The notes under the pieces: model-generated | Told to the model about the DNA's origin: nothing | The model's database searches: none | The model's input: only the letters and a program-made list of their open reading frames with translations | In this document: one piece after another, positions 5,182-46,461 of the stretch | How the letters are laid out: every line of letters starts with the position of its first letter | Numbering within the stretch: the stretch's first letter is position 1 | Source of the DNA: a virus | Direction: 5' to 3' (one strand) | IMG/VR virus record: IMGVR_UViG_3300045988_183511 | Length of the DNA: 64,000 nt | Program-made: the position numbers and the translations under genes

Positions 5182-5209
5182 ATTATATCTGATTCGCACA
5201 GATGTGCAA
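5182..5209 (-). promoter_or_regulatory. minus-strand promoter, motif family copy (TTGCAC-atc-TGTGCGAAT-caga-TATAAT)
   Basis: read on minus strand; sits about 80 nt upstream of the helicase start. Confidence 0.5.
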
Positions 5210-5225
5210 GCGTTTCCCTCCCCCC

Positions 5226-5272
5226 CCCAAAAAAAGAAAGAAAGACCCTTACCGAATTTCGGTAAAGGTCTT
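5226..5272 (-). terminator. rho-independent terminator after macro-domain gene
   Basis: minus strand AAGACCTTTACCG-AAAT-CGGTAAGGGTCTT hairpin followed by TCTTTCTTTTTTT. Confidence 0.5.
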
Positions 5273-5279
5273 ATTGCTA

Positions 5280-5756
5280 TTATTTCTGGAGTTCCCAAAT
5301 CTCAACATTCAGATTCCAGGCTTTTGCTGCATCGCTGATGATGTCCAGAACCGTGTCCCAGTCGCCTCCGGCAAGGCCGCAGCCTAAACCATATGGCAGC
5401 CGGACGATTGCGCTCTGATTCTTTTGAGCGCAGTCTCTAAAAAACGAGAACAGCGCAGCCGCCAGTGCAGCATAATTCGTCTGCCTTTCACCTCGGCCAT
5501 AACCATTCTGCCCGAACAGATTCACGACATACAGCTTCGGTTCTACCAGAACCTCCTGGTAAGTACCGAGCTTGTTGCCGTTGTTTCCATAGCAAAACTC
5601 CAGATAGCGCTGATATACCACCGGCCATTGGCTGCGAATTTGCATCGCGAGTCCGGCTCCCATCACGCCTTTGCAATTTACTTGCTGGCAAATGTAAGTT
5701 GGCTTACTCGCAGAAAGTCGTGAAAAAATATTGCCGTCGATAAATTTAATGTCCAT
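5280..5756 (-). CDS. macro domain (ADP-ribose binding/processing) protein
   Basis: ORF track; YICQQVNCKGVMGAGLAMQI matches the macro/Appr-1-p fold glycine-rich loop (VNAAN..GGGVAGAI); start set to MDIKFIDG (RBS AAGGGTGG). Confidence 0.6.
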   Translation of the reverse strand: MDIKFIDGNIFSRLSASKPTYICQQVNCKGVMGAGLAMQIRSQWPVVYQRYLEFCYGNNGNKLGTYQEVLVEPKLYVVNLFGQNGYGRGERQTNYAALAAALFSFFRDCAQKNQSAIVRLPYGLGCGLAGGDWDTVLDIISDAAKAWNLNVEIWELQK

Positions 5757-5757
5757 C

Positions 5758-6165
5758 TTACTTACCACCCTTTCCAAATTTCGAAGCATTCCCTGGATAG
5801 ATGGTGTAGTCCGTGCCATAATCAACGTTATTGTCTCGGTATACGAGCTCTACATTCGACATGCTGGTATAGAAAATCTTGTCTCGGTAACGGCTATCAC
5901 CGATTTCAAATTTGATGTTTTGCCCGTTGTCCACGATTTCGTAGCTTACGAGAGCGGATACGGTCCAAATGTTGTCGTAGCGAAAATGAATGTAATTGTA
6001 TTCCGGTTTCATCTCAGCACTTTCCGGTGTGGCCAATATCTGGTTCGGGATATCTTCGAGTTCAGACATTGTGGTACTTGTCACAGTGCTGATTGCGTCC
6101 TCACAGCCAGCCAAAAGTAGAGCCAGGCAGCACAGCACCAAAGCAGTCCCAATAAATTTTTTCAT
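5758..6165 (-). CDS. small lipoprotein
   Basis: ORF track; signal peptide with lipobox LLAGC; GGAGG RBS; stop 1 nt from macro gene start (operon). Confidence 0.55.
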   Translation of the reverse strand: MKKFIGTALVLCCLALLLAGCEDAISTVTSTTMSELEDIPNQILATPESAEMKPEYNYIHFRYDNIWTVSALVSYEIVDNGQNIKFEIGDSRYRDKIFYTSMSNVELVYRDNNVDYGTDYTIYPGNASKFGKGGK

Positions 6166-6188
6166 AGTTATTCCTCCGTCTGATTTTT

Positions 6189-6214
6189 ATTGTACGCAGT
6201 TCGCACAAAAGAAA
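6189..6214 (-). promoter_or_regulatory. minus-strand promoter, motif copy (TTTCTT-ttg-TGTGCGAAC-tgcg-TACAAT)
   Basis: read on minus strand upstream of lipoprotein-macro operon. Confidence 0.45.
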
Positions 6215-6294
6215 AAGCTGCCCAACAGCCATAAGGCCACTGAGCAGCTCAATATAAACCCTATTTTGTGTTTGATATCTGTCGTACAAATCTG

Positions 6295-6322
6295 ATTGTA
6301 CGAGCCTCGCACATCAGGTCAA
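6295..6322 (-). promoter_or_regulatory. minus-strand promoter, motif copy (TTGACC-tga-TGTGCGAGG-ctcg-TACAAT)
   Basis: read on minus strand; tandem with the 6189 copy. Confidence 0.45.
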
Positions 6323-6446
6323 GCCGTGTCGGCAGCTACGCATCCTGGCACCTACGGTTTCTGCGGGCAAAAGGATGCAGCTACGCAAACAAATAAGTCC
6401 TGCCCGCATTTTGCTGCGAGCAGGGTTTGCTTTTGCACTGTTGCGT

Positions 6447-6769
6447 TTAGCCCTCAATGTCGAAAGTGTAGCTTTCCTCTTTCATTGCAACAAGGCCCTT
6501 AAACGTCTGGCACTCGGCGTCGTCCAGGAATGCCTTGATGGTCAGGCTGGTATCCTCGTTATCCAGCCATTCGGGACGCATACGGACAACGAGGTCGTGC
6601 AGCTCTCCGACGACATAGGCCATCAGGTCCTGGTCGCCCAGGGCCTCACCAATTGCTTCATCATCGTATTCGACAGGGAAGCTGATGGAAGCGGCGAGGC
6701 CGTCGAGTTCGTCAAAATCTTTGGGACGGATTACAGTGGCTTCAAGTTTCAGAATGCTAGTGCTCATGT
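6447..6769 (-). CDS. small strongly acidic protein (about 107 aa)
   Basis: ORF track 6447..6902, start reset to MSTSILKL (AAAGGAG RBS); very high Asp/Glu content. Confidence 0.45.
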
Positions 6770-6817: not shown

Positions 6818-6848
6818 ATTGTACGCAATTCGCACGCTGTAGCAATAC
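6818..6848 (-). promoter_or_regulatory. minus-strand promoter, motif copy (..-gcg-TGTGCGAAT-tgcg-TACAAT)
   Basis: read on minus strand upstream of acidic protein gene. Confidence 0.45.
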
Positions 6849-6982: not shown

Positions 6983-7819
6983 TCAGTTTAACCCATCATT
7001 GTCATATTTATCACTTTTGCCCAAATTGCAGACGTCGCAGAGAGTGCGAAGATTTGATGGTATGGTTTGCCCGCCTTTTGATACAGGTAAAATGTGGTCA
7101 ACATGCAAAGTAATGCCATCTTTTGATGTTCTCCCACAAAGTACGCATCGAAATCCATCGCGCTTCATAATGTCATATCTCAAAGAAGGAGTTAAGAGTT
7201 GCCGCTGATATTCTTTGCTTGTCTTTTTCTCTTCTTCTGCATATGACTGACGAATATATGACTCGATTTCATCCATGGTATATGTCATTGTGTCTGTGTA
7301 GCAATTTCGGCCATGAGGTGATGTGTAGGTTTTTATACACGCAAGAATTATATCTGTCGTGGGAATCGGCCACTCATTTTCTGCCCTTTTCAACATCATC
7401 TTCTCAACGGTTTTATAAAGTATTGGCTGCTTTTCGGTATTTCCTTTATCCTCACCGCTATACGCAGGAAGCTTATTGTATTCGCGCATAAATGCTTTAT
7501 ACAACTTTCTGTTCTCAACCACTTTTGCCAAAAATTCTTCTAACCTGTCTCGCCTTGACGAAACCATCGTATAAACGCGCTTATCAAAATTGAAGCGGTC
7601 ATATTTGGCTTTTGTGTCCACAGATATATTATATTTGATAACGTCAGTTACCTGATTGAATTCGTATTTATTAACAAGCTGTTGATATGCCAAATATCGG
7701 TTACTGGAACGCGCAACGAGCTTCTCTAAATAGCACAGATAAAGCAAAAAGATTGTAACAGGAAGAAGTATAATGATTCCCATTTCCATCCACCATACCA
7801 GGCTATTGTAATGAAACAT
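6983..7819 (-). CDS. membrane-anchored HNH endonuclease domain protein
   Basis: ORF track; N-terminal TM helix; C-terminal CVLCGR...HVDHILPVSKGG...NLRTLCDVCN HNH motif. Confidence 0.6.
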   Translation of the reverse strand: MFHYNSLVWWMEMGIIILLPVTIFLLYLCYLEKLVARSSNRYLAYQQLVNKYEFNQVTDVIKYNISVDTKAKYDRFNFDKRVYTMVSSRRDRLEEFLAKVVENRKLYKAFMREYNKLPAYSGEDKGNTEKQPILYKTVEKMMLKRAENEWPIPTTDIILACIKTYTSPHGRNCYTDTMTYTMDEIESYIRQSYAEEEKKTSKEYQRQLLTPSLRYDIMKRDGFRCVLCGRTSKDGITLHVDHILPVSKGGQTIPSNLRTLCDVCNLGKSDKYDNDGLN

Positions 7820-8085: not shown

Positions 8086-8113
8086 ATTCTATGCGAATCG
8101 CACCACGAGTCAA
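8086..8113 (-). promoter_or_regulatory. minus-strand promoter, motif copy (TTGACT-cgt-GGTGCGATT-cgca-TAGAAT)
   Basis: read on minus strand. Confidence 0.4.
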
Positions 8114-8509
8114 TTTAAGACGTTCTAGAATAGGCATTCCATTGGGCGGCTCCCTCCTCTTTAGGCTGCTGCCAGTACAAAAAGAAAAAGACCCACCTGC
8201 TTGTGGCAGGTAGGTCATTTCTTATACTGAGCATTCTATTTCAGGTTTCTCGTTAGAGCCTTCCACCGTTCCTTCAGGCGCTCACCAAACTCTTCAACAG
8301 TCATCCGCTGCATGTGGTCGGAGAAGCTGCTAACCTGCTTGTATTCTAGGCCAATCTTAGTACACCCCTCCTTCAGGTTGGGTAGTTGACTTGTATGAGG
8401 TTCGCATAATCGGTCAACCGTCATACCTCATGAATCCGACCAGACCGGATTTTATTTTTTTTGAAACAAAAAAATAGCCCGCACAGAACTGAATCTGTAC
8501 GGGCTCGTA

Positions 8510-9010
8510 TTAGTCATGAGGATGTTCGTGGCAAGGTTCAGGCGGCATACCATGCGGGTCAGGCTCGGGGAAGTGGCCATGGTCCCCGATGATTTCCGAA
8601 GTACGGATACCGTTTGCTTTCCGGCAAGCCTCGATGGTCTTAGAAAGTACTTCCTTGACATCGCGCGGGTTCCTGATACGACGGATATCGATTTCAGGTG
8701 TCATGGCATCCGTGGAGCAGAGATGGATGCTGCCGACACGGCAAAGGCGCTCATAGAAGTTCTGCTTGAACGCGATTTCGTATATGAGGCTTACATGAAA
8801 ATGCTCAATCCCGCCTACTGGCATGTCTGCATTTTTATCTTTAATTACGAAGTCTAATGGAGTATTTGACCGTGTTGGTTCTACAATGTTATCTCCAATG
8901 ATTTCTTGAATAACATTTTTTGTGTATTCATACTTTGCCGCCGTTCTGGCAATTTTCAGGCACCGTTCTTCCGCGTCATATTGTGCTTGCGGACCATTGA
9001 CATCAATCAT
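8510..9010 (-). CDS. hypothetical protein (166 aa) co-oriented directly downstream of the RM specificity gene
   Basis: ORF track; 4-nt overlap with S subunit gene; His/Pro-rich C-terminus; no recognisable motif. Confidence 0.4.
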   Translation of the reverse strand: MIDVNGPQAQYDAEERCLKIARTAAKYEYTKNVIQEIIGDNIVEPTRSNTPLDFVIKDKNADMPVGGIEHFHVSLIYEIAFKQNFYERLCRVGSIHLCSTDAMTPEIDIRRIRNPRDVKEVLSKTIEACRKANGIRTSEIIGDHGHFPEPDPHGMPPEPCHEHPHD

Positions 9011-10056
9011 AAAGCAGCCTCATTTACTGTCATTTCATATTTTCCCATCATTACCTTCACCCGTTCTTCCATCTCCCTCATATACTCTTCCATATACGCC
9101 CAGTCAGGCTGACCTGTCTTGTCCTTGGGAAGCAAAATGACATCCTTGAGTAACTTCGTCCCCGTACACATTTCAGAGAAAGCGTATTTATCGGTAGTTA
9201 CTCGCTCAATAGCGCATCCGATAAACTGCATACAATGTTTAGTCATAGGCATTCTAGGCATAAGGATATTAACTCGACCATGGGACACAGCATAATACGG
9301 TTGCTCTTGATAGAATACTTTGCCAAACATATCTACGGTCAACGTATTTGCTTCCCAAAGACGGGCATTCTTGTTATCAATGAGCGCAATAATCCCATTA
9401 TTCTCTTTTCCAGACGACACGAGGGGGGTATTTCCTTCCACAATGACCTTGGGCTGAATGTCGTCTTTTGATAGAGCTGCGTCAAACAACTCCCCTACCC
9501 GGAACTCTCCCCACTCCCTCGCATCCACCTTTTTCTTCTCCGCATTCTTCGCAGCCTGCAGCAGGGTCAGCGACTCGGCGACTTGAGTTTCAAGGTTTGC
9601 TATGTAGGATTCCATATAAGCCCAATCGGGGTCGCCGTCAGGGGTGGTGGGGAGTTTAACCCTAAGGTTTCTTACTCTATCCACGCTCATTTTAAAGCCA
9701 AGCCAACCAAATTCAGCTCTCTTTCCAAAAATGATAGCGCAAAGAAAGAGCGCATTATATTTGTTAAGTGGGGTATGTGGCAAGGGAGTTAAAGTCGAAA
9801 CAATATTCGATGTGGTAAAAGCTTCTTCTTGATAAAAAGACGCTCCCATTGCACCGTCGGAAGCAACTGTAATGCAATTACCTTGATGTGTGGCTTCTTC
9901 GCAAGTGTTTGTAATCCCGTTGTTGAATCCACTGGTCGTAATATAGTTAACCGTTCCTGTTCCTAACTCGTCCTTTGCGTGAAACCTTCCATACTCGACC
10001 TTAAAGTAATCTCCAATCCGAAACTCCTTCCATTCGGAAGTATCAATCTTCCCCAT
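9007..10056 (-). CDS. restriction-modification specificity subunit with two target-recognition domains (BcgI-B / HsdS-like)
   Basis: ORF track; duplicated halves each ending in the conserved PDWAYMESYI / PDWAYMEEYM helix typical of S subunits. Confidence 0.7.
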   Translation of the reverse strand: MGKIDTSEWKEFRIGDYFKVEYGRFHAKDELGTGTVNYITTSGFNNGITNTCEEATHQGNCITVASDGAMGASFYQEEAFTTSNIVSTLTPLPHTPLNKYNALFLCAIIFGKRAEFGWLGFKMSVDRVRNLRVKLPTTPDGDPDWAYMESYIANLETQVAESLTLLQAAKNAEKKKVDAREWGEFRVGELFDAALSKDDIQPKVIVEGNTPLVSSGKENNGIIALIDNKNARLWEANTLTVDMFGKVFYQEQPYYAVSHGRVNILMPRMPMTKHCMQFIGCAIERVTTDKYAFSEMCTGTKLLKDVILLPKDKTGQPDWAYMEEYMREMEERVKVMMGKYEMTVNEAAL

Positions 10057-11863
10057 TATTGTCCTCTCCCTTCTCCACCAGAATGTTCGTGCCTTCCTCA
10101 GTGCCGGTCACTGTCGAACCGTAGAGCACCTTCTGCAGCAACTTGTCCCCGAACTCCTTGGCGTTGATGCCGCGCTTGTACATCTCGTAGTCCATCACGG
10201 TCTTGATGAAATCTTCCTCGTACAATTCAAAAGGCTTCTCCGGCATCTGATAGGACAGATGTTCAGCCGGATTGATAAGCTGGCGGGTGTTGTAGCGGTC
10301 ATCGTTGTCATCCTGTATTGCCTTGACCCAGTAATCTTCCAGCGCAGGCCACTTATCATGTACATCCTGCCGACCCTTGTTCTTGACCGTCTCCAGACCG
10401 TCATCAGCCACATAGTAGCCCTTGATGTTGCGCCCATTCTGAGGCTTGCCAGTCTCGAAGATGAAGATAGAAGTAGTAACGCCCAGACCGAAGAAAAGGT
10501 TCTCAGGCAGCTTGATGATGGTGGTCAGAGTATGGCGTTCCAGCAAGGCTTTCAACTTGGATTCCTTCTCCATCTTCTTATCCGGGAGAATGAAGGCACA
10601 CTTTGTACCTGCAGGAACGCTATCCAACACATTGGCAACGATTGTTGCACAACCGTATCGTCTCTCGTAAGGCGGGTTCATCAGGGTTTTCGTGATTTTC
10701 TGTTTCCGAATCCATTCAGTCGCCTCAGCCGAAGTGGCATCCATCTGCACAAGGTTTGTCTTACCGTCCTTGTGAATCATCATGTTGGCACAGGCCAGAG
10801 CGTAGACTTTCCGGTACATCTCGATACCGAACAACTGCTCAGACTTGATTTGCTTCGCCTTGCTGGTATTGCTGCCGCCTGCCTCACGAATCATATTGCA
10901 CATGCTCTTAACGAGGAAGGTGCCGGAACCACAGGTGGCATCCAGAACCCGGTCATTCATATTCACATCAATGAGTCGGTACATAAACGATGCAATATGG
11001 TCAGGAGTAAACACCTGTCCCGCCTGAGCCTTACCACGGTAGCGGTTGAACTCATTGAAGAAGATAGCCATGACATCTTCGCCATTCCAGTTATCGGAGT
11101 TGACGAGGTCGGCAATCTGGCAGACATTGTCGATGAAATCGTTGATGGCTTCCTGATTTTCCGTAATAGACATACGGACAGAGGCATACTCCTCCAAGAG
11201 TACATCCAGCTTGCTATTCTGCTTCTTATCATCTTCCAGAGCCTTAGACAGGGCACTGTAAATCCAGTTATGGAAGGTGCTGTAATCCATGTCTTTCAGC
11301 TTTTGAAGACCGTTCTGAGGGTTGTAACGCTGGGCGACAAGGGCACAAGCTGTGAAAATCATCCGGTCCTGCAAGTCCGTCATGCCGAACTTGAAATGCA
11401 GGCTGTTGTTGATTTTCTGCGTGATTTCGAAGATGTAGTTACTATCCAGTTTCTGGCTCGTACACAGGCGGATATAGTAGTCCTTGTTTTCCAAGCGCTT
11501 GGACGCATCAGACAGCTCGATTTTGTTCTTGAACACGCGGATAGCACTGCCGCTATAAAGAATACCGATGGTCTTGGAGTATTTCTTGGCAACTACATCG
11601 ATGTTCTTGAACAGTTCCTTGACATGCTTTTCCTTGGAAACGCCTTCTGTTTCCGATTTTGTCTCCAGAATAATGGCTGGTTTGCTGGCGTCATCCGGCA
11701 GATACCAGCCATCCGGCTTGTCATTGCAGCCACGGAACCCCAACTGGTTGAAGGTAGTGATTTGCCCAGTCCCCTGCTGCACTCCATCTTCGGTCTTATC
11801 AAAGCCAAGAACCAGCTTGGCACTGTCACGAACTTCGTCTTCCGTGCGAAATGCTTTTACCAT
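10043..11863 (-). CDS. restriction endonuclease-N6-adenine methyltransferase fusion (BcgI-A-like Type IIB, about 607 aa)
   Basis: ORF track; N-terminal PD-(D/E)xK-like PDGWY...ILETK; MTase motif I DATCGSGTFLV and motif IV NPPY; start set to MVKAFR (AGGAGA RBS). Confidence 0.65.
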   Translation of the reverse strand: MVKAFRTEDEVRDSAKLVLGFDKTEDGVQQGTGQITTFNQLGFRGCNDKPDGWYLPDDASKPAIILETKSETEGVSKEKHVKELFKNIDVVAKKYSKTIGILYSGSAIRVFKNKIELSDASKRLENKDYYIRLCTSQKLDSNYIFEITQKINNSLHFKFGMTDLQDRMIFTACALVAQRYNPQNGLQKLKDMDYSTFHNWIYSALSKALEDDKKQNSKLDVLLEEYASVRMSITENQEAINDFIDNVCQIADLVNSDNWNGEDVMAIFFNEFNRYRGKAQAGQVFTPDHIASFMYRLIDVNMNDRVLDATCGSGTFLVKSMCNMIREAGGSNTSKAKQIKSEQLFGIEMYRKVYALACANMMIHKDGKTNLVQMDATSAEATEWIRKQKITKTLMNPPYERRYGCATIVANVLDSVPAGTKCAFILPDKKMEKESKLKALLERHTLTTIIKLPENLFFGLGVTTSIFIFETGKPQNGRNIKGYYVADDGLETVKNKGRQDVHDKWPALEDYWVKAIQDDNDDRYNTRQLINPAEHLSYQMPEKPFELYEEDFIKTVMDYEMYKRGINAKEFGDKLLQKVLYGSTVTGTEEGTNILVEKGEDNNGED

Positions 11864-11983
11864 AATAGATTCTCCTAAAATTAAAATCCCCACGCAGACA
11901 TTTTCATCCGCATGGGGACCACAAAAGAAAGAGCCGCAGAAACATAATCTCTGCGGCTTACACTTATTTATCTTATATTTCCC

Positions 11984-12011
11984 ATCATATTCAATTCGCA
12001 CGGATGCACAA
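11984..12011 (-). promoter_or_regulatory. minus-strand promoter, motif copy (TTGTGC-atc-CGTGCGAAT-tgaa-TATGAT) for the RM operon
   Basis: read on minus strand about 120 nt upstream of RM gene start. Confidence 0.5.
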
Positions 12012-18177: not shown

Positions 18178-18265
18178 AGTGCATTTCCTTTCCGCAAACA
18201 AAAAAGTCCCGCACAAACAACTCATGCGGGACAACGATAAGATATATTTTTGGTTTATATTTTTC

Positions 18266-18293
18266 ATTGTACGCAATTCGCACAGATTGACAA
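18266..18293 (-). promoter_or_regulatory. minus-strand promoter, best motif copy (TTGTCA-atc-TGTGCGAAT-tgcg-TACAAT)
   Basis: read on minus strand about 90 nt upstream of small membrane gene. Confidence 0.55.
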
Positions 18294-18412
18294 TAGAAAA
18301 TTACAAAAAAATTCCCGCATGAGCGTCGCTGCTCACACGGGAAAAAATTTCTTAATATTGGGTATTTATTATTTTTGGTGGGATTTCTTACGAAAATTGG
18401 TGGTCTACTAAT

Positions 18413-20763: not shown

Positions 20764-20957
20764 AATGTGTATCTCCCTTTTGGATTTCTTATTATATGGA
20801 TATTGCACTTTTTTGCAAGGGCTTTTAACCCAAGCACCTTTTGCGCCGTTTGTCAATGGCCACAAAATATCAAAGTACTGGTAAAATTAAGGTGGGAAGA
20901 CGTTCTGGAACCATGAAACACAGGGCCCTGCCTCTTGCTTATGGCTGCTGACTTTTT

Positions 20958-23202: not shown

Positions 23203-23230
23203 AATTGTCTGCAATTCGCACAGTTTCGCA
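23203..23230 (-). promoter_or_regulatory. minus-strand promoter, motif copy (TTGCGA-aac-TGTGCGAAT-tgca-GACAAT)
   Basis: read on minus strand. Confidence 0.45.
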
Positions 23231-23264
23231 ACATGATATTGTCTGTGAATACCAGTTATCGGAG

Positions 23265-23903
23265 TCATAGTCCTTTGACAAAATTCGGGTCGTAGTGGGA
23301 CAGGACTTCCTCGTTCAAGCTGTATTCGCAGTTGATAGTCGTTGCGTCATCCACATACATGCCTCGGTTTGCGTAGTATATTCCATCAATATAAATGGCG
23401 AACATGACGGACGGCATCAGTGCCTTTTCATTCACTGCGTAAATCAGGTATTCATCCAGATTATCCTTGACCACCGCGCTCTTATTGATTTGGGCGATTT
23501 GCTGTCCGCCAAGAAATACAGGGCAGCATACTCCTTCTTTTCCAAAACCAATTTTGTAGCTCTGGTATTCCTCGCCATACAGCTGCATGGCGATAGAATT
23601 GTATCCTTGGAGAAATCCGGTTTTTGTATGGATGACGGAAATCTCGCCTACCGTGCAGTTGTTCTCACGGATAGCAAAAGGGTATCTCAGAATATCTTTC
23701 GTGTTGATGCCGCGCATGTACGCCCTTGCGTCAGCAGCTGGCATGTATTGCAGCAGAAACTTGGAATCATTCAGCCGGATGCCATAACCCTGCCGTAGCA
23801 ATTTCGGGATATAGTGTGCCTGCCCGATAACGGCCTTGCCTTTCACGATATCGAAGGTGAACTCATATCCTTTCGATTTGGTTTGCTTCACAATCCATTG
23901 CAA
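23265..23903 (-). CDS. hypothetical protein (212 aa)
   Basis: ORF track. Confidence 0.4.
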   Translation of the reverse strand: MQWIVKQTKSKGYEFTFDIVKGKAVIGQAHYIPKLLRQGYGIRLNDSKFLLQYMPAADARAYMRGINTKDILRYPFAIRENNCTVGEISVIHTKTGFLQGYNSIAMQLYGEEYQSYKIGFGKEGVCCPVFLGGQQIAQINKSAVVKDNLDEYLIYAVNEKALMPSVMFAIYIDGIYYANRGMYVDDATTINCEYSLNEEVLSHYDPNFVKGL

Positions 23904-24144
23904 GACTCATCGCCTCCTTTTGCCTTCTCACTCGCTGGATAACCTTGTAAATACCAGGAACCGAGAGCTGATATTTTTCGGATAGTTTCTGCACCGGTAC
24001 GCCACTCTCGTATTCTCGAAAGATATTCTCATTGCGCGGTCTTTGTCTAATTTTGATGCGCTCATTTCTACGGTTTTCAGTCAGGCCCGCATCGTTGGCA
24101 ACCATGCTGCAATATCCTTCTGCCACGTTAAATTTCGCAATCAT
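23863..24144 (-). CDS. small HTH protein (sigma-70 region-4-like)
   Basis: ORF track; ESGVPVQKLSEKYQLSVPGIYKVIQRV helix-turn-helix. Confidence 0.45.
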   Translation of the reverse strand: MIAKFNVAEGYCSMVANDAGLTENRRNERIKIRQRPRNENIFREYESGVPVQKLSEKYQLSVPGIYKVIQRVRRQKEAMSLAMDCEANQIERI

Positions 24145-24189
24145 TTCCTTGAGAGGGACACTGTTCTTGTATGCCGCAAGAATTTCGGC

Positions 24190-24327
24190 CTATCTAGCAT
24201 CCTCTACCTGCGCCAACTGAATTCTGGCCTCCTGTTTCGCGTCGTCTAACGCTCGATAGCATGTACGGACGCTCAACCTGTATTTTGCGGCAAGCTCCTC
24301 AATGGAATAGCCGTTGCCGTAGTCTTT
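24190..24327 (-). CDS. very small HTH protein paralogous to 23863..24144; same frame, separated by a single TAG
   Basis: ORF track 24190..24441; GYSIEELAAKYRLSVRTCYRAL HTH; start reset to internal ATG because the promoter motif overlaps the track start. Confidence 0.3.
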   Translation of the reverse strand, partial: KDYGNGYSIEELAAKYRLSVRTCYRALDDAKQEARIQLAQVEDAR

Positions 24328-24403
24328 CATGATATTGCAATTTCGCTCAATCAACTTTTTGCTTGCAAATTTTGAGATGGTACTCAGCTCCTTTGCTTTA
24401 CGC

Positions 24404-24431
24404 TTTATTTCTGATTGTCTGCAATTCGCAC
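24404..24431 (-). promoter_or_regulatory. minus-strand promoter, motif copy (TTGCCC-att-TGTGCGAAT-tgca-GACAAT)
   Basis: read on minus strand. Confidence 0.45.
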
Positions 24432-24492
24432 AAATGGGCAACTATTTTTGCGAAATAAGAAGGCAGGCTCCGAAAAGAACCTGCCATGCATA

Positions 24493-26998: not shown

Positions 26999-27026
26999 AT
27001 TGTATGCAATTTGCACGGCTGTGCAA
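26999..27026 (-). promoter_or_regulatory. minus-strand promoter, variant motif copy (TTGCAC-agc-CGTGCAAAT-tgca-TACAAT)
   Basis: read on minus strand. Confidence 0.4.
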
Positions 27027-37144: not shown

Positions 37145-38275
37145 TTATTGCTGTGCAGCTTCCAACAAGAATCTGGCCTTTTCCTGAACTGCATGTTCCA
37201 GCATCTTGAGCCGCTCATCACCGAGATTATACCGACTATGCTTTTTGAACTTGAAAGTCAGCAAATGCCGCAGCTCCTGTTTCTGTTTTGGTCCCATAAC
37301 ATGACAAGCGACTTCATCGAAGTTTGCATACAGAGCTGGAGACAATGTCTTTTCCTGCTCGGAGAGATTGTTCAAGTCATCATCCATAACATAACAGTAC
37401 AGAGATAACCCATTATCGAAGATGGGCGCAGGCTTTAGCAATTGATTTGTATGGTTATCTACCAGGAAGCCGAAGTTACCAAGATGTCGGTCCGCATTTC
37501 GAATCACAGCATCCAGAACCAGCATATCTGCTAGGTCATCTTTCCAACCGTGAGCGTCATACCAGACAACAATTTGGGAAATCTTGGAGGTTTCAATAAG
37601 CGTGGATGCCGGAACGAAGGAAATATCTTTGCTCGTGAACAGCTCACAGGTGGAGCAAAGCATTCCTTTCCACTTGGAAAGTCCATAAGAGATATGGTCA
37701 ATTCCCATTGCCTCAGCTACCTGTGCGGCATAGAACTCAGAGTAGGGTTCTTTGCCAGTATTGGCAAAACCGCTTGTCCCGCCCTTGTAAAGCAGAACTT
37801 TACCGTCTTTTCTACGCCATGCTTTTGGTAGCATACCATTCGTTGTGAATTCAGGAGAGGACCGGAATTTCGATGCAGGAGAACTGCCATAACCTGTAAA
37901 AGCAATTTGCGATAGCACTTGACTGAATCGATTGTCGAAAAGGTTTACCTGCGCGAAAGTCTTTGGGTCATCCGGATAAGTGACCCAATAGCAATCGGTT
38001 AGGGAGAGTCCTTTGCAGATTTGTAGGATACCGATGAAATCATTCTCGCTCAAGCCATTTTTTGATAGGAAATTCTGAGCATAAGCTCTGTTTGCAGGAA
38101 TCGTCCGGTGCCGCAGCCAACGGGTCAATGATTCGTTGGTGGACTTCATACCAAGGGGTAGGTACGTCGCTTTATCTTTGTTTGTTGAGGTAATGGCAAC
38201 GTCAATACCGTCAATGGTTCGTTTGGCTGTAAAATGGAGCAGGATATCATCGAATTGTTTCAGCACCAAATCCAT
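37145..38275 (-). CDS. HipA-like serine/threonine kinase
   Basis: ORF track 37145..38293, start reset to MDLVLKQ (AAAGGAGGG RBS); HipA C-terminal catalytic region DAHGWKDD...VLDAVIRNADRHLGNFGFL. Confidence 0.6.
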   Translation of the reverse strand: MDLVLKQFDDILLHFTAKRTIDGIDVAITSTNKDKATYLPLGMKSTNESLTRWLRHRTIPANRAYAQNFLSKNGLSENDFIGILQICKGLSLTDCYWVTYPDDPKTFAQVNLFDNRFSQVLSQIAFTGYGSSPASKFRSSPEFTTNGMLPKAWRRKDGKVLLYKGGTSGFANTGKEPYSEFYAAQVAEAMGIDHISYGLSKWKGMLCSTCELFTSKDISFVPASTLIETSKISQIVVWYDAHGWKDDLADMLVLDAVIRNADRHLGNFGFLVDNHTNQLLKPAPIFDNGLSLYCYVMDDDLNNLSEQEKTLSPALYANFDEVACHVMGPKQKQELRHLLTFKFKKHSRYNLGDERLKMLEHAVQEKARFLLEAAQQ

Positions 38276-38357
38276 AAAGCACCCTCCTTTCACAAATAAT
38301 TTATAGGAATATTATAGCATATAGCACCGTTTCTCTCAACGCTTGTTTTATCGGCAC

Positions 38358-39083
38358 TCATCCGCCTTTAACTGTCTCAAACTCCAAAGTAATGGTATCC
38401 ACGATACAAAAAGCCTGTGACCCGTATGGGGTTCCGTCACGATAGGTCGAGAAAGTATCACAGGAAAGAACTCCGTCTTCCAAGCGTACTTCTTTGACTG
38501 GCGTATGCCCCACCACTTGCAGATATTTGCCGCCGCGATACAAACGTTTTGCGTTCTGATTCGGAGACAGCTGCGGGCGATACCAAATGGGAGAGTCCGC
38601 TGCCCACATTGTCTCACAGCCCATCTGGTTGATAACTTTGATAACCGCGAGAACATTTTTGCGGTTCTGTGGTGCTACCCGGAGCTGAACAAAGAGATTT
38701 GCAAGGCCGCCGTGCATGAAAAGTGTTTTGTCAATTTTGTGGATATATGCAAGCTGACTTTTCTTTGGCAAGGTATTTGTCAACTTTTTAATTTCTTGAC
38801 ACACCAGCCCTCTTTTTTCCGGATGGTATCCGGTTTCCGGTTTTCCCCAGATGTAGCTCAGGTCATGGTTCCCGTAGCACCAGAGAGTATCTGGATGTTC
38901 CTTGGCAAACGCGATTGCGGTTTCATAGGTCTCCAGATACTGCGCATCATCATGTACCCCGAAATCATCTGCCAAGTCCATAAGGCAGACGGCCTTGTCC
39001 GCAATGCCCTTCTTCACGATGGCATCTGCCTGCGCAAACATCCAGGGTTTCAAATGGCAATCTGGAATGACTAAGACCTTCAT
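38358..39083 (-). CDS. calcineurin-like metallophosphoesterase (PPP-family Ser/Thr phosphatase-like)
   Basis: ORF track; GNHD and GHTP metal-binding motifs; directly upstream of HipA-like gene in same operon. Confidence 0.6.
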   Translation of the reverse strand: MKVLVIPDCHLKPWMFAQADAIVKKGIADKAVCLMDLADDFGVHDDAQYLETYETAIAFAKEHPDTLWCYGNHDLSYIWGKPETGYHPEKRGLVCQEIKKLTNTLPKKSQLAYIHKIDKTLFMHGGLANLFVQLRVAPQNRKNVLAVIKVINQMGCETMWAADSPIWYRPQLSPNQNAKRLYRGGKYLQVVGHTPVKEVRLEDGVLSCDTFSTYRDGTPYGSQAFCIVDTITLEFETVKGG

Positions 39084-39119: not shown

Positions 39120-39147
39120 ATTATATACGATTCGCACCGAATGTCGA
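39120..39147 (-). promoter_or_regulatory. minus-strand promoter, motif copy (TCGACA-ttc-GGTGCGAAT-cgta-TATAAT)
   Basis: read on minus strand about 40 nt upstream of phosphatase gene. Confidence 0.45.
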
Positions 39148-39483
39148 GAATTCCGTTCTGGAGAATCATTGTGTTCGGCCGCCATGGCATCGTGCTGCCG
39201 GGCCAAGCTGAGCCACGCCAAATAATGTTGAATCGGAATTCAGTGAAATTGAATTCAACGTTTTTGAGAATACAAGAAGAGCCCCCGCCAAGCAGCGGAG
39301 GCTCGCTTTTTGTGCGGCAAAGCTCAAAGTCATAGGGGTGCTTTTTCCAAACGCCAGGAAATCTCCCTCATAGTTTGCATCGTGCCAGAAATTATTGAAA
39401 TTATAGAGAATTTTTGCAAGCCCTAGTGTTTACAAGTGCAGTGTTTTAGCGTATAATGTAAACAGCAGAAAGGAGGAAAGGCG

Positions 39484-40515
39484 ATGGATATCAGCAAAAA
39501 CATCACCTATTATCGTTCTCAAAAAGGCGTTACTCAGCAATGGTTGGCTGACGCAATCGATGTCAGTAAAATGAGCATTTCCCATTTTGAGAATGGTAAA
39601 CGCCGTCCGGACATTGCAACCATCAAGAAAATTTGTAAAGCGCTGGATGTTACTCTTGGTAAATTCATGGCGTACAATGAGGGAGTTACTGTTTTTAATG
39701 GCTCTTTCCGTAAGTCGGACAACCTAGCCGCATCTCAGCAGGATGCTATCGTTGCTCAGATTCGCTACGCTGCACAGCGCTATTACGATGCCTGTTTGTG
39801 CGCCAATACCGTTTGTGACGCCAACACTCTACCCAAAGAGAAAATTCCTGTTTTTGAGGATGCAAACCGGTCCGCTTCCTATATGCGCAGCGTTCTTGGC
39901 CTGGCTCCGACCGGGCCCGTTGGCAATCTTACCAGCGTACTCGAAAACAAGGGCATCTATGTCGTTCTGGTCGAACAGCGTGACATGGGTGTATCTACCA
40001 AGAACTTCTCGGGGTATAATGGACTCTCCAATAAGGGCTTCCCTATCATCGCTGTAAATGAAAGTATGGTCTATGGCCGTCAGCGCTTTACCCTTGCACA
40101 TGAATTCGCACATTTGCTCTTTACCAATGCTACTGAGCGGCAGATTGACGATATTGCAGGACGGTTTTTATTGCCCAGCGAAGATTTGAAACGAGAAGTT
40201 GGTAGCAAACGACCGTTTATCAGTTTTAAGGAAATCGTGTATGTCCAGAATGAATATGGAGTTTCTGAACAGTGCATTGTTTTTCGTGCAAGGCAAGAGG
40301 AAATCATTAGTCAGCGCACTTATGATATTATCCTTAATGCCAAGGAACACCCACAAGATACTACCGATATCAGAGAACATCCTATTCGGTTGGAGCAAAT
40401 TGTCTGTCGCGCTTATACTGATAATGAAATTAGCGTATCGAAGGCTGCTGAGCTGTTAAATGTCGATACCGTTAAAGCTGCAGCTATTTGTGGGGCAGGA
40501 GGAGAAAGCGCATGA
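39484..40515 (+). CDS. XRE-family HTH regulator fused to ImmA/IrrE-type zinc metallopeptidase domain
   Basis: ORF track; N-terminal HTH (QQWLADAIDVSKMSISHFENGKRRP); HEFAH zinc-binding motif; AGGAGGAAAGG RBS. Confidence 0.65.
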   Translation: MDISKNITYYRSQKGVTQQWLADAIDVSKMSISHFENGKRRPDIATIKKICKALDVTLGKFMAYNEGVTVFNGSFRKSDNLAASQQDAIVAQIRYAAQRYYDACLCANTVCDANTLPKEKIPVFEDANRSASYMRSVLGLAPTGPVGNLTSVLENKGIYVVLVEQRDMGVSTKNFSGYNGLSNKGFPIIAVNESMVYGRQRFTLAHEFAHLLFTNATERQIDDIAGRFLLPSEDLKREVGSKRPFISFKEIVYVQNEYGVSEQCIVFRARQEEIISQRTYDIILNAKEHPQDTTDIREHPIRLEQIVCRAYTDNEISVSKAAELLNVDTVKAAAICGAGGESA

Positions 40516-41358: not shown

Positions 41359-41361
41359 GAA

Positions 41362-43013: not shown

Positions 43014-44534
43014 TCAGGCAGCTTTCTTTGCTGCGGTTTTGCCCTTCGGACCCTTCTTCCGTGCATTGGCTTCAAGCTCCTTCTTGTTGGTATCATACCA
43101 AACCTCGAACTCCTTGAAGTTGTTCAATGCCCAAATCTCAGGAGAAGCCTTGCGACCGTAAATTTCTTCCAACAGGTGGATGACTTTACGACCAACTTCT
43201 TCCATGATTTTGGCGTCGTATTTGTGGTTGCGGCAAAAACCTTCAGGCATAACGATGTCGTATTTGGGGTCAAGAACTTCAAGCCCCGGCTCCTGAATGC
43301 GAATCATGGTGTACCCAGCTTTGTGGGCAGCTTCAAACTTGAAACGGTCTCTTACTACGTGTTCATCATCTCCATGCCATGCAACGCCATTGTATTCGCC
43401 ACACAATTTCTGAATGTGGTCCACAAAGTCCAGACCCAAGAGGCTGTTTTCGCCTAAGATGCTTCGTACATCAGAGAAAGGATTGGCAATTCCATTCTCA
43501 CCAGCAAACGCCAGCATAAGCCGCACCACGAAACACTCTGGTTTGGAAATAGCATTCTTTCTCCGCATTTTGCAGTCGTAACAGCCAGTAAAGCCATTGC
43601 CTACAGAACGGACAACATTTTGAATCGCGGCTTCGAATTCTTGCCCGCAATCACGGCATTTGAAGAAGGCTTTTTTGCTGCTCTTAACAGCGACTTCTGA
43701 AGCAGAAAGCTTATTTTTGCTACTCCACATGGCGGCTGCTTCTGGGCATTGCGACGCAAGGTCGTTGATGCTAGAAACAACCTTGAGCCCCGCACAAATA
43801 GGGCAACCAGTGTGACCATTATCTACAGCATCGACAACGTGATGGATTCTGGCTTCAAATTCTTGCCCGCAATTATGACATTTGAAGAAAGCCTTTTTAC
43901 CGCTTTGGGTGGCAACTTCTGAAGCAGAAAGCCTGTTTTTGCTGCTCCACATTGCAGCCGCTTTCGGACATTGCGAAGCAAGGTCATTGATGCCGGGAAC
44001 AACTGTTTTGCCTGCACAAACAGGGCAACCGGTGCGACCTTTTTTTACAGAATTCACAACATCGGCAATTTTGGTTTTGAATTCTTGCCCGCAATTATGA
44101 CATTTGAAGAAAGCCTTTTTACCGCTTTGGGTGGCAACTTCTGAAGCAGGAAGCTTGTTTTTGCTGCTCCACATAGTAGCGACTTCTGGGTATTGCGACG
44201 CAAGGTCGTTGATACCGGGAACAACTTTTCGCCCCGCACAAACAGGGCAGCCAGTGGTGCCATTGCCTACAGAACGAACGACATTGCAAATTGCGGCCTC
44301 AAATTTCTGTTTACAGTCCGGACAAACAAATGTGAGCTTTCTTCCGCTTCCTGTAGTAACATCAAAAGCAAGATGCTTGTCCTTTTCGCTCAGCATTGCA
44401 GCTACTTTCGGGCAAGCAACAGCAAGGCAATTTTCTTTGATGTTATACGGCATCTCAATGCCAAGAGTCGGAACAGATGCGCAAGCAGCGCAATTGCAGG
44501 TGCTGGCATGCATAACCTTCACAAAAGTATTCAT
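43014..44534 (-). CDS. protein with about 6 tandem zinc-ribbon repeats and C-terminal DUF559 (Vsr-like) endonuclease domain
   Basis: ORF track 43014..44804 with start reset to MNTFVKVMHAS (GAGGAG RBS); repeat unit TGCPVCAG.KVV.GINDLASQ.P..A.MWSSKN.L.ASEV...S.KKAFFKC..CGQEF; C-terminus GLDFVDHIQ...EYNGVAWHGDDEHVVRDRFKFEAAHKAGYTMIRIQE. Confidence 0.55.
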   Translation of the reverse strand: MNTFVKVMHASTCNCAACASVPTLGIEMPYNIKENCLAVACPKVAAMLSEKDKHLAFDVTTGSGRKLTFVCPDCKQKFEAAICNVVRSVGNGTTGCPVCAGRKVVPGINDLASQYPEVATMWSSKNKLPASEVATQSGKKAFFKCHNCGQEFKTKIADVVNSVKKGRTGCPVCAGKTVVPGINDLASQCPKAAAMWSSKNRLSASEVATQSGKKAFFKCHNCGQEFEARIHHVVDAVDNGHTGCPICAGLKVVSSINDLASQCPEAAAMWSSKNKLSASEVAVKSSKKAFFKCRDCGQEFEAAIQNVVRSVGNGFTGCYDCKMRRKNAISKPECFVVRLMLAFAGENGIANPFSDVRSILGENSLLGLDFVDHIQKLCGEYNGVAWHGDDEHVVRDRFKFEAAHKAGYTMIRIQEPGLEVLDPKYDIVMPEGFCRNHKYDAKIMEEVGRKVIHLLEEIYGRKASPEIWALNNFKEFEVWYDTNKKELEANARKKGPKGKTAAKKAA

Positions 44535-44658
44535 AATTATCCTCTTTTCTCCTCGTAACATTCGAGGCTTGCAATAAAAAGCAACCACCATCCCCCATTG
44601 CAGGAAGATGATAGCTGCTACATTTATAAGCCAACTTCGTATTAGATGGCTTTTTTTA

Positions 44659-45819
44659 TTATTCTTCAGTAGCTTTCTGACCGTGGTGAAGAGCACCACG
44701 GACAAATTGGTTCCAGCGAGCATGGTACAAAACGAACCCGTCTTCAAACTCCACCGTGATGTTGTTGACACCATGATAAGCGGTGCAGGTGGCTTTACTG
44801 CCATCCTTCATCGTCATCGTGGTGCCGACAGATTTCGGAGAACTGTACTCGTCCTTGCGAGCTGCGTTGATGGCACGCCCCCGCAGTCTGCAATTGGGGC
44901 AGCAAGTAACACCGGACGCAATAGCCCGCGTCATGTTGTGGATGCTTGTCACAAACTCTTGTTTGCAATCGGGGCACACAAAAATGGCGCGTCTGGACGA
45001 ACGGGCAGGAATTTCGCTGGGGGCGTAATCGTTCTTGCCGCTCCACATAGCAGCAGCTTTTGGATACATGGTCGCCAAATCGTTGACGCCGGAAATAGCC
45101 TTGCGACCTGCACAAACAGGGCAACCGGTATTGTTATGCAACAAAGAATTGACGACGTTGCAAACGGGAGCCTTAAACTCCTGTTTGCAGTCGGGGCAGA
45201 CAAACCATGCCATTTTGTTGTTGCCTGCAGATATCTTACCGGGAGAGCAAGCGTTTTTGTTGCTCCACATGTTGGCTGCCGCAGGGCACTTTGTAGCCAA
45301 GTCATTGATTCCGGAAACCACTTTCAAACCACGACAAACGGGACAACCGGTGCGATAATGCATCAAAGAGTTGACAACATTGCAAATGGAAGACTCAAAC
45401 TCTTGTCCGCAATCAGGGCATACAAAGATGGCCTTTTTGTGGCTGCCTGCAGCTACTTCGCTGGGAGAGCAAGCGTTCTTGTCACTCCACATGGTAGCAG
45501 CCATAGGGCATTTGGTAGCCAAATCGTTGATGCCGGAAACAATCTTTTTACCTGCACAAACAGGGCAACCAGTGCTACCGTTCATTACCGAACGAACAAC
45601 ACTAAAGATTTTGCTTTCAAATTCCTGCCCACAGTCTGGGCAAACAAATGTGAACTTTCTTCTGCTTCCCGCAGCCACTTTACTGGGAGAGAAGGTGTTC
45701 TTGTCACTCCACATGGCAGCGACCTTAGGGCATTTGGTAGCCACGTCATTGATGCCGGGGATAACTTCCTTGGAATTGGTAGTGTTGGTGTTGATGTTGG
45801 TATTCATAGCGGCTTTCAT
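44659..45819 (-). CDS. paralogous zinc-ribbon repeat protein (about 6 repeats, no DUF559 domain)
   Basis: ORF track 44659..45909 with start reset to MKAAMNT; near-identical RBS/5' region to gene 43014..44534. Confidence 0.5.
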   Translation of the reverse strand: MKAAMNTNINTNTTNSKEVIPGINDVATKCPKVAAMWSDKNTFSPSKVAAGSRRKFTFVCPDCGQEFESKIFSVVRSVMNGSTGCPVCAGKKIVSGINDLATKCPMAATMWSDKNACSPSEVAAGSHKKAIFVCPDCGQEFESSICNVVNSLMHYRTGCPVCRGLKVVSGINDLATKCPAAANMWSNKNACSPGKISAGNNKMAWFVCPDCKQEFKAPVCNVVNSLLHNNTGCPVCAGRKAISGVNDLATMYPKAAAMWSGKNDYAPSEIPARSSRRAIFVCPDCKQEFVTSIHNMTRAIASGVTCCPNCRLRGRAINAARKDEYSSPKSVGTTMTMKDGSKATCTAYHGVNNITVEFEDGFVLYHARWNQFVRGALHHGQKATEE

Positions 45820-45952
45820 AACAGACTCTCTTTCTCCTCGTATTTTCGAGGCTTGTAAAATAAAAATAGCAGCTATCATTTTTACGATAACTGCTTCATA
45901 TATGAGCATACGGCGTGCAGCCGAATGTCATGCTGGAATTGGATAGAGTGGC

Positions 45953-46303
45953 TTACTGCTCATCGAGCAGGATTCCACCGTGCTTGGCGATGATGGCATC
46001 GACAACAGTGAGCGGCACATAGCCGTACACTCCGTCATCACCATATTCGTCGAGCAATGGCTCGGACGGAGACGGGAACCCGACTTCTACGCTCACGTAG
46101 CCCCCCTCGTCGTCCTTCTGGCAGTAGTGGCCTTCGGATGCCTGGATAGACATCTTAAAGCCATCTGCGCAGATTGCTTCGGGGCGGTTCTCGCGCATCG
46201 CCATCATAACAGCAAATATGTTGCCGCTATTTTTGGCAATTTTCTCCTTCTTCAGAAGGTCGGTAACGCGGATGAATTCGGCGGTGTTCATAATGGTGTT
46301 CAT
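45953..46303 (-). CDS. hypothetical protein (about 116 aa)
   Basis: ORF track 45953..46327, start reset to MNTIMNTAEF (GAGGAAA RBS). Confidence 0.4.
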   Translation of the reverse strand: MNTIMNTAEFIRVTDLLKKEKIAKNSGNIFAVMMAMRENRPEAICADGFKMSIQASEGHYCQKDDEGGYVSVEVGFPSPSEPLLDEYGDDGVYGYVPLTVVDAIIAKHGGILLDEQ

Positions 46304-46433
46304 AGCTTTCCTCGACTTTCTCCGCATTACGCGGTCTTACAACAAAAAAAGACAGGTCACCCGATTGGTGCCTGTCTGAATTTGTCAGATTATGAATGGT
46401 TGATGTCGGTTTATTATCTGTCGTACAACGCTT

Positions 46434-46461
46434 ATTGTATGCTGTTCGCAAGTTTCGTCAA
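46434..46461 (-). promoter_or_regulatory. minus-strand promoter, variant motif copy (TTGACG-aaa-CTTGCGAAC-agca-TACAAT)
   Basis: read on minus strand. Confidence 0.4.

Follow-up and report, generated by a model that had tools for sequence, protein, structure and literature searches.

The DNA analysed here, a stretch of 64,000 nucleotides from the IMG/VR virus record IMGVR_UViG_3300045988_183511 (hereafter, the window), carries a long series of promoters on its minus strand in which one short sequence, here termed the box, lies between the -35 and -10 hexamers, and the question raised by this locus is what such a box does at a promoter that a housekeeping sigma factor could read by itself. A previous model-made reading based on the letters of the window (the sequence-only reading) had counted at least 14 copies, regarded them as a single regulon, and proposed that the box was either the operator of an element-encoded repressor or a specificity element for an element-encoded sigma factor or activator. 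The present analysis revealed that the sites are one promoter family under position-specific constraint, and that this family heads nearly all transcription units of one strand of a ~245-kb human-gut conjugative element, transfer genes included. With a probability of roughly one half, the box would be the docking site of one element-encoded protein, favoured here as an autoregulated global repressor.

The copies, written as 28-nt ranges from the -10 through the -35 hexamer in plus-strand coordinates, share a -35 TTGC and a -10 TAnAAT separated by a 16-nt spacer, in which YKTGCGAAY occupies -25..-17 in a fixed register. The near-invariant core of the box is the hexamer TGCGAA at -23..-18, accompanied by a conserved G at -15. 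This layout agrees with the housekeeping sigma-70/sigma-A pattern (TTGnnn, 16-18 bp spacer, TAnnnT), and the -35 and -10 hexamers of the box promoters were also flagged by a generic promoter scan. Enrichment in the window, which the sequence-only reading had suggested checking by motif scanning, was confirmed by shuffling, by an exact pattern, and by a position weight matrix (PWM). Specifically, YGTGCGAAY had 12 matches in the window, all on the minus strand, compared with 2.8 expected (0/100 shuffles reached 12), and the pattern TTG-N6-YGTGCGAAY-N5-A-N3-T gave nine exact matches, compared with 0.00 expected. The PWM, trained on copies from related loci and not on the window copies, retrieved 19 sites scoring 8 bits or more (17 scoring 15 bits or more), whereas shuffled sequence gave 0-2. 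All 19 sites fell within 5182-46927, and 18 of them were on the minus strand.

Comparison with the copies listed earlier showed that all 15 were recovered with at most two mismatches, and that the fixed spacing described for them holds in every copy, the 9-mer being separated by 3 nt from the -35 hexamer and by 4 nt from the -10. Most ranges had been placed right; those starting at 23203, 24404, and 31004 were off by 1-10 nt and are corrected to 23204-23231, 24414-24441, and 31014-31041, and for the copies starting at 6189 and 6818 the correct right ends are 6216 and 6845, respectively. The 9-mer was called invariant, but the exact degenerate 9-mer is present in only 10 of the 15 copies, the other five having one to three substitutions within it (GTGCGAGG, GGTGCGATT, GTGCAAAT, GGTGCGAAT, and CTTGCGAAC), and it is the core TGCGAA that is near-invariant. 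The PWM scan added the sites at 8390-8417, 20791-20818, and 46900-46927 (plus strand) to the list, as well as a doubtful one at 46689-46716. A distance of 40-120 nt to the first gene of an operon had been given for every copy; every copy was found either 24-130 nt upstream of a same-strand start codon, which has a Shine-Dalgarno sequence, or before a short terminated leader RNA. Coordinates are collected in Table 1.

Related loci provided a larger sample. The strict 28-mer (TTG-N6-YGTGCGAATTGCRKACAAT) was found in 96 IMG/VR stretches, 90 of which were homologous to the window as mosaic relatives, and the register was identical among the 47-68 non-redundant copies with unrelated flanks obtained from these and further related loci. 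As those copies had been found via the motif itself, a second, motif-blind set was made, comprising 49 non-redundant upstream regions aligned solely by a leader RNA found downstream of a subset of the promoters. The consensus of this set was TTGC-n5-Y(G/T)TGCGAAY-n-G-n2-TAnAAT, with TTG conserved in 43-48/49 regions, the next base C in 34/49, TGCGAA in 39-45/49, the G at -15 in 39/49, and the T, A, A, and T of TAnnAT each in 43-45/49 (43/49 for both the A at position 2 and the T at position 6). The five positions after TTGC and all sequence upstream were essentially random, the upstream sequence being T-rich only. Moreover, in 2.23 Mb of related loci the 9-mer occurred 357 times in the promoter register, representing 196 distinct contexts, and 56 times outside it, compared with 63 expected by chance. 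The box exists solely within promoters, never as a free-standing site. In orthologous promoters, substitutions were also less frequent in TTG, TGCGA, and the -10 than in the flanking sequence, in data too sparse for a test.

These comparisons bear directly on the idea that no dedicated factor exists, and that the box is a module of host-polymerase promoters, or neutral, and was spread by duplication and by recombination between elements, with the shared 28 bp as a crossover site. The -35, the spacer length, and the -10 are all ordinary, and strong phage early promoters are known to share homology beyond the two hexamers. In addition, homology breakpoints of 18 related loci were located inside promoter 24414-24441 (at 24421-24433), and further breakpoints relative to other loci (5210-5233, 6854, 18345-18359, 46516, and 46874) lay inside or at the edge of box promoters, including the copies at 5182 and 6818; this analysis is confounded, as the loci were selected by the motif and breakpoints favour intergenic DNA anyway. 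A shared box promoter may nevertheless serve as a crossover point for cassette exchange. However, in the motif-blind copies positions 5-9 and the flanks are randomised while positions 10-18 and 20 are held, which argues for selection on specific bases and not for descent. To our knowledge, no polymerase contact reads a hexamer at -23..-18. Given also the canonical promoters of the same element that have no box and the lack of the strict motif in reference genomes (both described below), an explanation with no dedicated factor is considered unlikely.

Considering that the element has genes on both strands, its plus-strand promoters are informative. Canonical promoters lacking the box were found for three plus-strand genes, the one before the XRE-M78 gene being near-consensus (TTTACA-17-TATAAT), in line with the earlier statement that a housekeeping sigma factor does not need it; therefore, the host polymerase does not require the box. 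A search for the strict 28-mer in 185,579 species reference genomes (one per species) yielded nothing beyond two cyanobacterial chance matches. Taken together, these two results make a host-wide promoter feature unlikely, a judgement that rests on reference genomes and on the promoters of the element. Since the box appears dispensable to the polymerase and the strict motif is absent from these genomes, a mark of an element-specific regulon would be the best reading of it.

Among the proteins suggested earlier as binding such a mark was the XRE-ImmA (XRE-M78) fusion encoded at 39484-40515. No other gene of the window is of the classical repressor type, and, as with immunity repressors, it lies on the opposite strand behind a box-less canonical promoter. 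That promoter, however, is bracketed by an inverted repeat, TGTTTACA-N22-TGTAAACA (39427-39464), which recurs at no box promoter and is probably the operator of the XRE-M78 gene itself. Furthermore, XRE domains typically bind dyads as dimers, whereas the box is asymmetric. The fusion thus becomes a weaker candidate than had been supposed, and we regard its binding to the box as quite doubtful.

The extent of the family was traced beyond the window on the same contig. The type IV secretion system (T4SS) block forms one long operon, the promoter of which lies upstream of the pilin gene, ~8.9 kb past the right end of the window, and is itself a degenerate family member (TTGCACGCCTTTGCGAGGTGCAGATAAT, 20.8 bits). 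Hence, the earlier observation that the T4SS block contains no copy is true inside the window, but the promoter of the operon belongs to the family. A close IMG/VR relative with the same T4SS promoter has another member further right, upstream of a pair of RecD2-like helicase genes, and three further members lie left of the window, one of them before three helix-turn-helix (HTH)-repeat genes. The single regulon proposed for the cargo island accordingly stands as one family but not as a cargo-only one, as the T4SS operon, the helicase genes of the relative, and operons to the left are included. Box promoters head cargo operons (for defence, anti-defence, and other functions), the genes of the HTH-repeat regulators, short leader RNAs with structure, and the T4SS operon. 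No motif was found within 10 kb on either side of the T4SS in relatives at 79, 64, and 46 % VirB4 identity, a comparison that is uninformative because these distant loci span mainly the T4SS block, which is motif-free here too.

The gene content of the headed strand bears on another alternative raised before, that the sites are leading-region single-strand (Frpo-like) promoters firing on the incoming strand. The element has a long same-strand array of defence, anti-defence, and hypothetical genes, and its many anti-defence-like genes on that strand (macro, NADAR, Apyc1-like lactamase fold, and DNA polymerase IV) resemble plasmid leading regions, which carry genes of the anti-defence type (PMC11541004). 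Nevertheless, no inverted partner copy was detected near any site, and single-strand folds of 150 nt on six promoters gave z ~0 unless a flanking terminator was included, with the -35 and -10 hexamers unpaired and placed in no long stem. Single-strand promoters are thus an exceedingly improbable explanation.

Downstream of the box promoters, three classes of leader were distinguished, and the box is common to all of them, from which it follows that the box acts independently of the leaders. Class 1 consists of short plain leaders running into the first gene. In class 2 leaders, a conserved AATATAAG lies at about +5..+12 and is followed by an intrinsic terminator that ends near +55-60, an arrangement suggesting regulated termination. 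Class 3 is a structured RNA of ~100 nt (leader or small RNA, sRNA) that opens exactly 6 nt after the -10 with UGUACGAUAGAUA(A/C)C and contains a variable hairpin, a conserved AUUCACAAUU block, and a covarying terminator at its end. Its 5' heptamer pairs with a downstream heptamer, and compensatory variants (TGTACGA:TCGTACA, TGTATAA:TTATACA, TGTAGCA:TGCTACA, TGCATGA:TTATGCA, and TGTACAA:TTGTGCA) support this long-range helix. Beyond the window, class 3 RNAs were detected in the left-flank locus L111 (13102-13210) and in more than 120 IMG/VR stretches, and 132 of 145 copies had a box promoter 33-34 nt upstream. No match was obtained in Rfam 15, and the class 3 leader RNA appears to be previously undescribed.

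The leaders raise the further possibility that the box loads a Q-type antiterminator onto polymerase paused downstream, which then reads through the terminators of leaders and operons. The position of the box is that of the lambda Q-binding element, which lies between the -35 and the -10. An intrinsic terminator was present within 160 nt in 25 of 68 non-redundant promoters, and terminated leaders have -10-like sequences (ATATAAG, TACGAT) in their first 6-13 transcribed bases. Moreover, the T4SS operon contains terminator-like hairpins with T-runs (60700-60760 and 53270-53330, minus strand) that are not followed by a promoter, which hints that full expression of the transfer genes needs antitermination. 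On the other side, 43/68 promoters lack a leader terminator, the pause elements are conjecture, and no Q, NusG, or RfaH-like gene was detected; no Q-family Pfam match rose above noise, the Phage_antitermQ match of one HTH-repeat protein being negligible (E = 0.17). Antiterminator loading at the box therefore seems improbable, slightly more so than recognition by the XRE-ImmA fusion.

With respect to the regulator, the genes of most interest are those for the HTH-repeat proteins. The sequence-only reading had named tandem small HTH proteins as candidates; these turned out to be one gene, and the candidate is retained. In most relatives it encodes a single 155-aa protein with three HTH repeats, intact members of which occur in clusters of 619 and 469 member sequences. 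The window copy is split by an AAG-to-TAG change (24180-24190) into an open reading frame (ORF) of ~46 aa and a 93-aa ORF at 23863-24144. Because it is split here by a stop codon that most relatives lack, the 155-aa member is weaker as the sole factor. Three adjacent paralogous genes, encoding proteins of 175, 172, and 317 aa with 3, 3, and 6 repeats, respectively, were located behind a box promoter of 38 bits in L111 (18219-20212), which belongs to the same contig and places them 9.1 kb to the left of the window. The element thus encodes four mutually homologous HTH-repeat proteins of 3-6 repeats each, and the box promoters of their two transcription units are among the best-scoring ones. Near the left-flank trio lie a radical SAM gene and a gene for an Apyc1-like metallo-beta-lactamase.

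The HTH-repeat proteins match the Mor Pfam family and show weak matches to sigma-70 region 4; no match was obtained against PDB sequences. An AlphaFold model (pLDDT 77) gave per-domain HTH similarities only (E > 0.4), the nearest, non-significant fold matches being the bipartite Tc3 and paired domains. Repeat arrays of this sort could recognise an asymmetric site in the manner of these bipartite domains. We infer that the paralogous HTH-repeat proteins are the best candidates for the factor.

The same proteins leave room for a positive role of the box, as a specificity element for an element-encoded activator, sigma-appropriation factor, or sigma-like protein; such control is known from phages P1 (Lpa box, -22) and T4 (MotA box, -30) and from sigma factors encoded by plasmids or phages. 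The register relative to the -35 and -10 is invariant in >190 distinct contexts, as a polymerase-contacting factor would need, and the box is never a stand-alone site. Furthermore, the -35 prefers TTGC over the housekeeping TTGA, with TGC recurring at motif positions 2-4, 12-14, and, less consistently, 19-21; several high-scoring copies carry a weakened -10, GACAAT; and the sigma-70 region 4 matches, weak as they are, point in the same direction. However, known activator-dependent phage promoters of this type have no conserved -35, whereas TTG is kept in nearly all copies of the motif-blind set, and the -10 retains the A and T needed by the housekeeping sigma factor. In addition, the window and 18 kb of same-contig flanks yielded no sigma-family gene. 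Positive control through the box is therefore a tentative alternative, deserving more weight than those above. In the boldest reading, to which slightly less credence is given, a new kind of promoter-specificity protein, a sigma-4/Mor-like HTH array present in several paralogues, would read TGCGAA along with the G at -15 and the -35 with its TGC, binding asymmetrically within the polymerase footprint, and would program transcription of the whole 245-290 kb gut element, jointly with a hitherto undescribed class of 5' leader RNA and terminator attenuator behind a quarter of the promoters.

Repression remains the tentatively favoured sign. Both hexamers are kept, so the promoter should fire unaided; -25..-17 is an effective place for occlusion; and the only plausible regulators found in the regulon come from two of the best box promoters, as in global plasmid repressors. 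In the docking-site model, one sequence-specific DNA-binding protein encoded by the element would dock on the box, inside the RNA polymerase footprint, and would act on an already competent promoter, given that the -35 and -10 are both conserved. The shared docking site would set all box promoters together. If the protein is an autoregulated global repressor, which is the less certain part of the model, entry of the element into a cell without repressor would lead to a burst of expression of defence, anti-defence, and transfer genes, followed by shut-down.

Several points weigh against the docking-site model with a repressor. The existence of the trans-acting factor is something we infer from conservation. 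Repressor operators are usually palindromic, except for those of monomeric or tandem binders, and the box has no such symmetry. The exact register also fits a polymerase-touching factor (an activator, a sigma-like protein, or an antiterminator loader) or an inherited promoter cassette. The best candidate gene in the window is broken by a stop codon here while the promoters are intact. Finally, a sigma factor or other regulator could lie outside the ~82 kb seen of the 245-kb contig and the ~3.7 kb of a close relative.

Table 1. Positions of box promoters, their leaders, and associated features in the window (box promoters as 28-nt ranges, -10 through -35, plus-strand coordinates)
Feature	Position	Strand	Score (bits)	Context
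Promoter TTGCACATCTGTGCGAATCAGATATAAT	5182..5209	-	33.0	leader with terminator 5160-5122, then UvrD-like helicase gene 2376-5102
Promoter, degenerate -35 (TTT)	6189..6216	-	30.7	before 135-aa lipoprotein-like gene 5758-6165 and macro-domain gene
Promoter GTGCGAGG	6295..6322	-	23.9	short structured leader/sRNA opening with TGTACGACAGATA (6276-6288), terminator 6250-6215
Promoter	6818..6845	-	34.4	upstream of 106-aa ORF 6447-6767
Promoter GGTGCGATT	8086..8113	-	22.6	upstream of small ORF and HNH endonuclease gene 6983-7819
Weak extra copy ATGCGAAC, -10 TACAAG	8390..8417	-	16.9	not in earlier list
Promoter	11984..12011	-	31.0	leader with two terminator-like hairpins, 11958-11932 and 11920-11885
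Type I restriction-modification genes	hsdM 10043-11863, hsdS 9007-10056	-		behind promoter 11984..12011 and its leader
Promoter	18266..18293	-	39.7	leader terminator 18232-18206, then small ORF and ResIII helicase gene 15729-17924
Extra degenerate copy AGTGCAATA	20791..20818	-	15.4	upstream of ORF 20155-20763
Promoter	23204..23231	-	39.8	upstream of hypothetical-gene block beginning at 22568-23164
HTH-repeat (Mor/sigma-4-like) gene, candidate trans factor	23863..24330 (5' boundary approximate)	-		behind promoter 24414..24441
Promoter, top score	24414..24441	-	41.7	upstream of HTH-repeat (Mor-like) gene
Promoter CGTGCAAAT (relatives: CGTGCGAAT)	26999..27026	-	32.8	upstream of PLD-nuclease/ATPase gene 24493-26658
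Promoter	31014..31041	-	33.4	upstream of ORF 30140-30943 and VWA-domain gene 28444-30138
Promoter	32901..32928	-	38.4	upstream of flotillin/SPFH gene 31164-32807
Promoter	33068..33095	-	31.2	leader opens with TTGTACAAG; terminator ~120-130 nt downstream in close relatives
Promoter GGTGCGAAT, TCG for TTG	39120..39147	-	23.5	upstream of metallophosphatase gene 38358-39083 and HipA-like gene 37145-38293
Canonical promoter TTTACA-17-TATAAT, no TGCGAA	39429..39457	+		XRE-M78 (XRE-ImmA) gene 39484-40515
Promoter CTTGCGAAC	46434..46461	-	23.1	structured leader (TGTACGACAGATA at 46415-46427) with terminator, then ORF 45953-46303
Only plus-strand copy ATATGCGAG	46900..46927	+	18.0	leader 5' helix TGTACAA..TTGTGCA, then RHS-repeat gene 47000-47950
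Degenerate relative TTGAGAAAAAGTGCAATTTATGGTATAAT in T4SS block	51490..51518	-		17-nt spacer, extended -10; not counted as member
Class 2 leader	5122-5175	-		before helicase operon
Class 2 leader (two hairpins)	11885-11977	-		before hsdM operon
Class 2 leader	18206-18260	-		before ResIII helicase operon
Class 3 RNA	6206-6288	-		
Class 3 RNA	46340-46427	-		
Class 3 RNA	46934-46975	+		

The element itself is widespread. The window is 100 % identical to part of a 244,716-bp ENA human-gut metagenome contig (ERZ28577608, FENG15-1 scaffold_2), where it spans about 79,787-143,786 in reverse orientation. Identical sequences of its proteins were present in 133-670 blocks of public assemblies, the coupling protein being identical in 670 blocks of public metagenome assemblies. 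Contigs carrying these proteins were mostly 245-290 kb, with none >1 Mb, and exact-protein matches were to metagenome contigs only, though some clusters list NCBI as a source. For a relative at 79 % VirB4 identity, the contig measured 111,817 bp in one sample and 111,816 bp in another (111.8 kb, Logan ERR11504576_1699), and this near-equality suggests a closed circle. The T4SS is of the Firmicute type (VirD4, VirB4, and T4SS pilin). It is also noted that the element family is catalogued in IMG/VR as viral contigs of 26-390 kb, yet a full conjugative T4SS is present. Megablast of 20-24 kb window pieces against PLSDB plasmids and INPHARED phages gave no match, and Pfam scans of cargo from relatives gave almost none. 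A literature search with the motif string returned unrelated primers alone, and nothing specific was found in the literature on gut conjugative elements, leading regions, and Faecalibacterium plasmids.

Several other features of the window were observed. A hepatitis delta virus (HDV)-like self-cleaving ribozyme (Rfam RF02682, 57 bits vs a gathering score of 44) is located at 28348-28417 on the minus strand, between ORF 27935-28324 and the VWA gene; its Rfam family is named after F. prausnitzii and is the sole hint at the host. A split IscB-like unit (RRXRR + HNH) at 18360-20153 lies 66 nt upstream of promoter 18266-18293 and is an insertion relative to 17-19 related loci that join 18359 to 20154. 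Moreover, the DUF4379 zinc-ribbon gene at 43014-44804 contains 2.9 tandem copies of a 222-bp unit (43629-44274, 81 % matches) and is adjoined by a paralogue at 44659-45909.

A range of known promoter and operator types was compared with the box and rejected. The extended -10 (TGn) does not apply, as the conserved G lies three bases before the -10 hexamer (at -15), not two, and the generic scan reports no TG. A MerR-type spacer operator needs a 19-20 bp spacer and a dyad, whereas the spacer here is 16 bp and the box asymmetric. Relative to the Spo0A 0A box (TGNCGAA), (G/T)TGCGAA is one base short between TG and CGAA, and of the Gram-positive LexA (Cheo) box (CGAAC-N4-GTTCG) only the half-site CGAAC/CGAAT is present, the second half coinciding with the -10 region and giving no match. 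A sigma-54 promoter has GG and GC about 10 nt apart (-24/-12) and no TAnAAT; here the distance from the G-rich part to TGC is 8-10 nt, and a conserved TAnAAT follows. Also rejected, on spacing or sequence, were sigma-28/sigma-D, sigma-H, sigma-E/K, the extracytoplasmic function (ECF) and sigma-I -10 (CGAA), CRP/FNR/Rex, cre, and the DnaA box. In a dyad reading, TGTGC-N7-GYACA, the right half tracks the -10 constraint only. A Mu Mor/C-dependent promoter was likewise rejected, since nothing is conserved upstream of the -35 here except T-richness.

The nearest parallels in regulatory logic are the IncP kor regulon and the network of P1 C1 operators, and those in box position are the P1 Lpa box and the lambda Q-binding element. 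Among mobile elements, the IncP (RK2) kor regulon, especially the KorA operators over the -10, is similar in that one regulator site occupies a fixed position in many promoters, covering transfer, maintenance, and accessory operons, with regulators that autoregulate, and the same logic is proposed here. Global placement of this kind was found in the present family, with 19 window copies, further ones on either flank, and the many contexts in relatives described above. By contrast, KorA operators are 12-bp palindromes bound by dimers, whereas the box is asymmetric and lies in the spacer, and the host is Firmicute-like, not proteobacterial. Pfam scans covering about 60 ORFs of the window and 8 of the left flank revealed no KorA homologue or family member. 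The operators of P1 C1 resemble the box in being asymmetric, without a dyad, and repeated at many promoters across a large plasmid-like element, but these 17-bp sites are not register-locked in promoters, and no C1-like protein was detected here.

Phage promoter classes provide the remaining parallels. P1 late promoters all have an extra element (Lpa) near -22, between the -35 position and the -10; it is a 9-bp inverted repeat that replaces the -35, whereas the present box has no such symmetry and coexists with a conserved -35 TTG. T4 middle promoters (MotA/AsiA) similarly combine a host-sigma -10 with an element-specific box at a fixed distance, defining a temporal class, but the MotA box, with its centre at -30, takes the place of the -35, while the present box is centred near -21 with both hexamers kept. 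At lambda PR', the Q-binding element likewise places a factor site between a good -35 and -10 with terminators downstream; it serves a single promoter, however, whereas here no Q-like gene was found and most copies have no leader terminator. The candidate HTH-repeat proteins share the Mor Pfam family with Mu Mor/C, which bind a dyad near -43 at promoters without a -35, in contrast to the arrays of three to six HTH repeats and the box at -23..-18 found here.

Interest in the family is above average, as the element is widespread yet poorly known and the sequence-level finding is solid. A single cis-element on nearly all operons offers a handle on the switching of the defence, anti-defence, and transfer genes of the element, and the box is a compact signature for finding and delimiting the element family and its cargo cassettes in metagenomes. 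In summary, a global promoter-embedded regulatory element of a mobile element is not categorically new, but this one lacks defining features of each known system, and it may be an example of an asymmetric, register-locked spacer element, which neither the known global plasmid regulons with palindromic operators nor the phage promoter classes with a box replacing the -35 cover.

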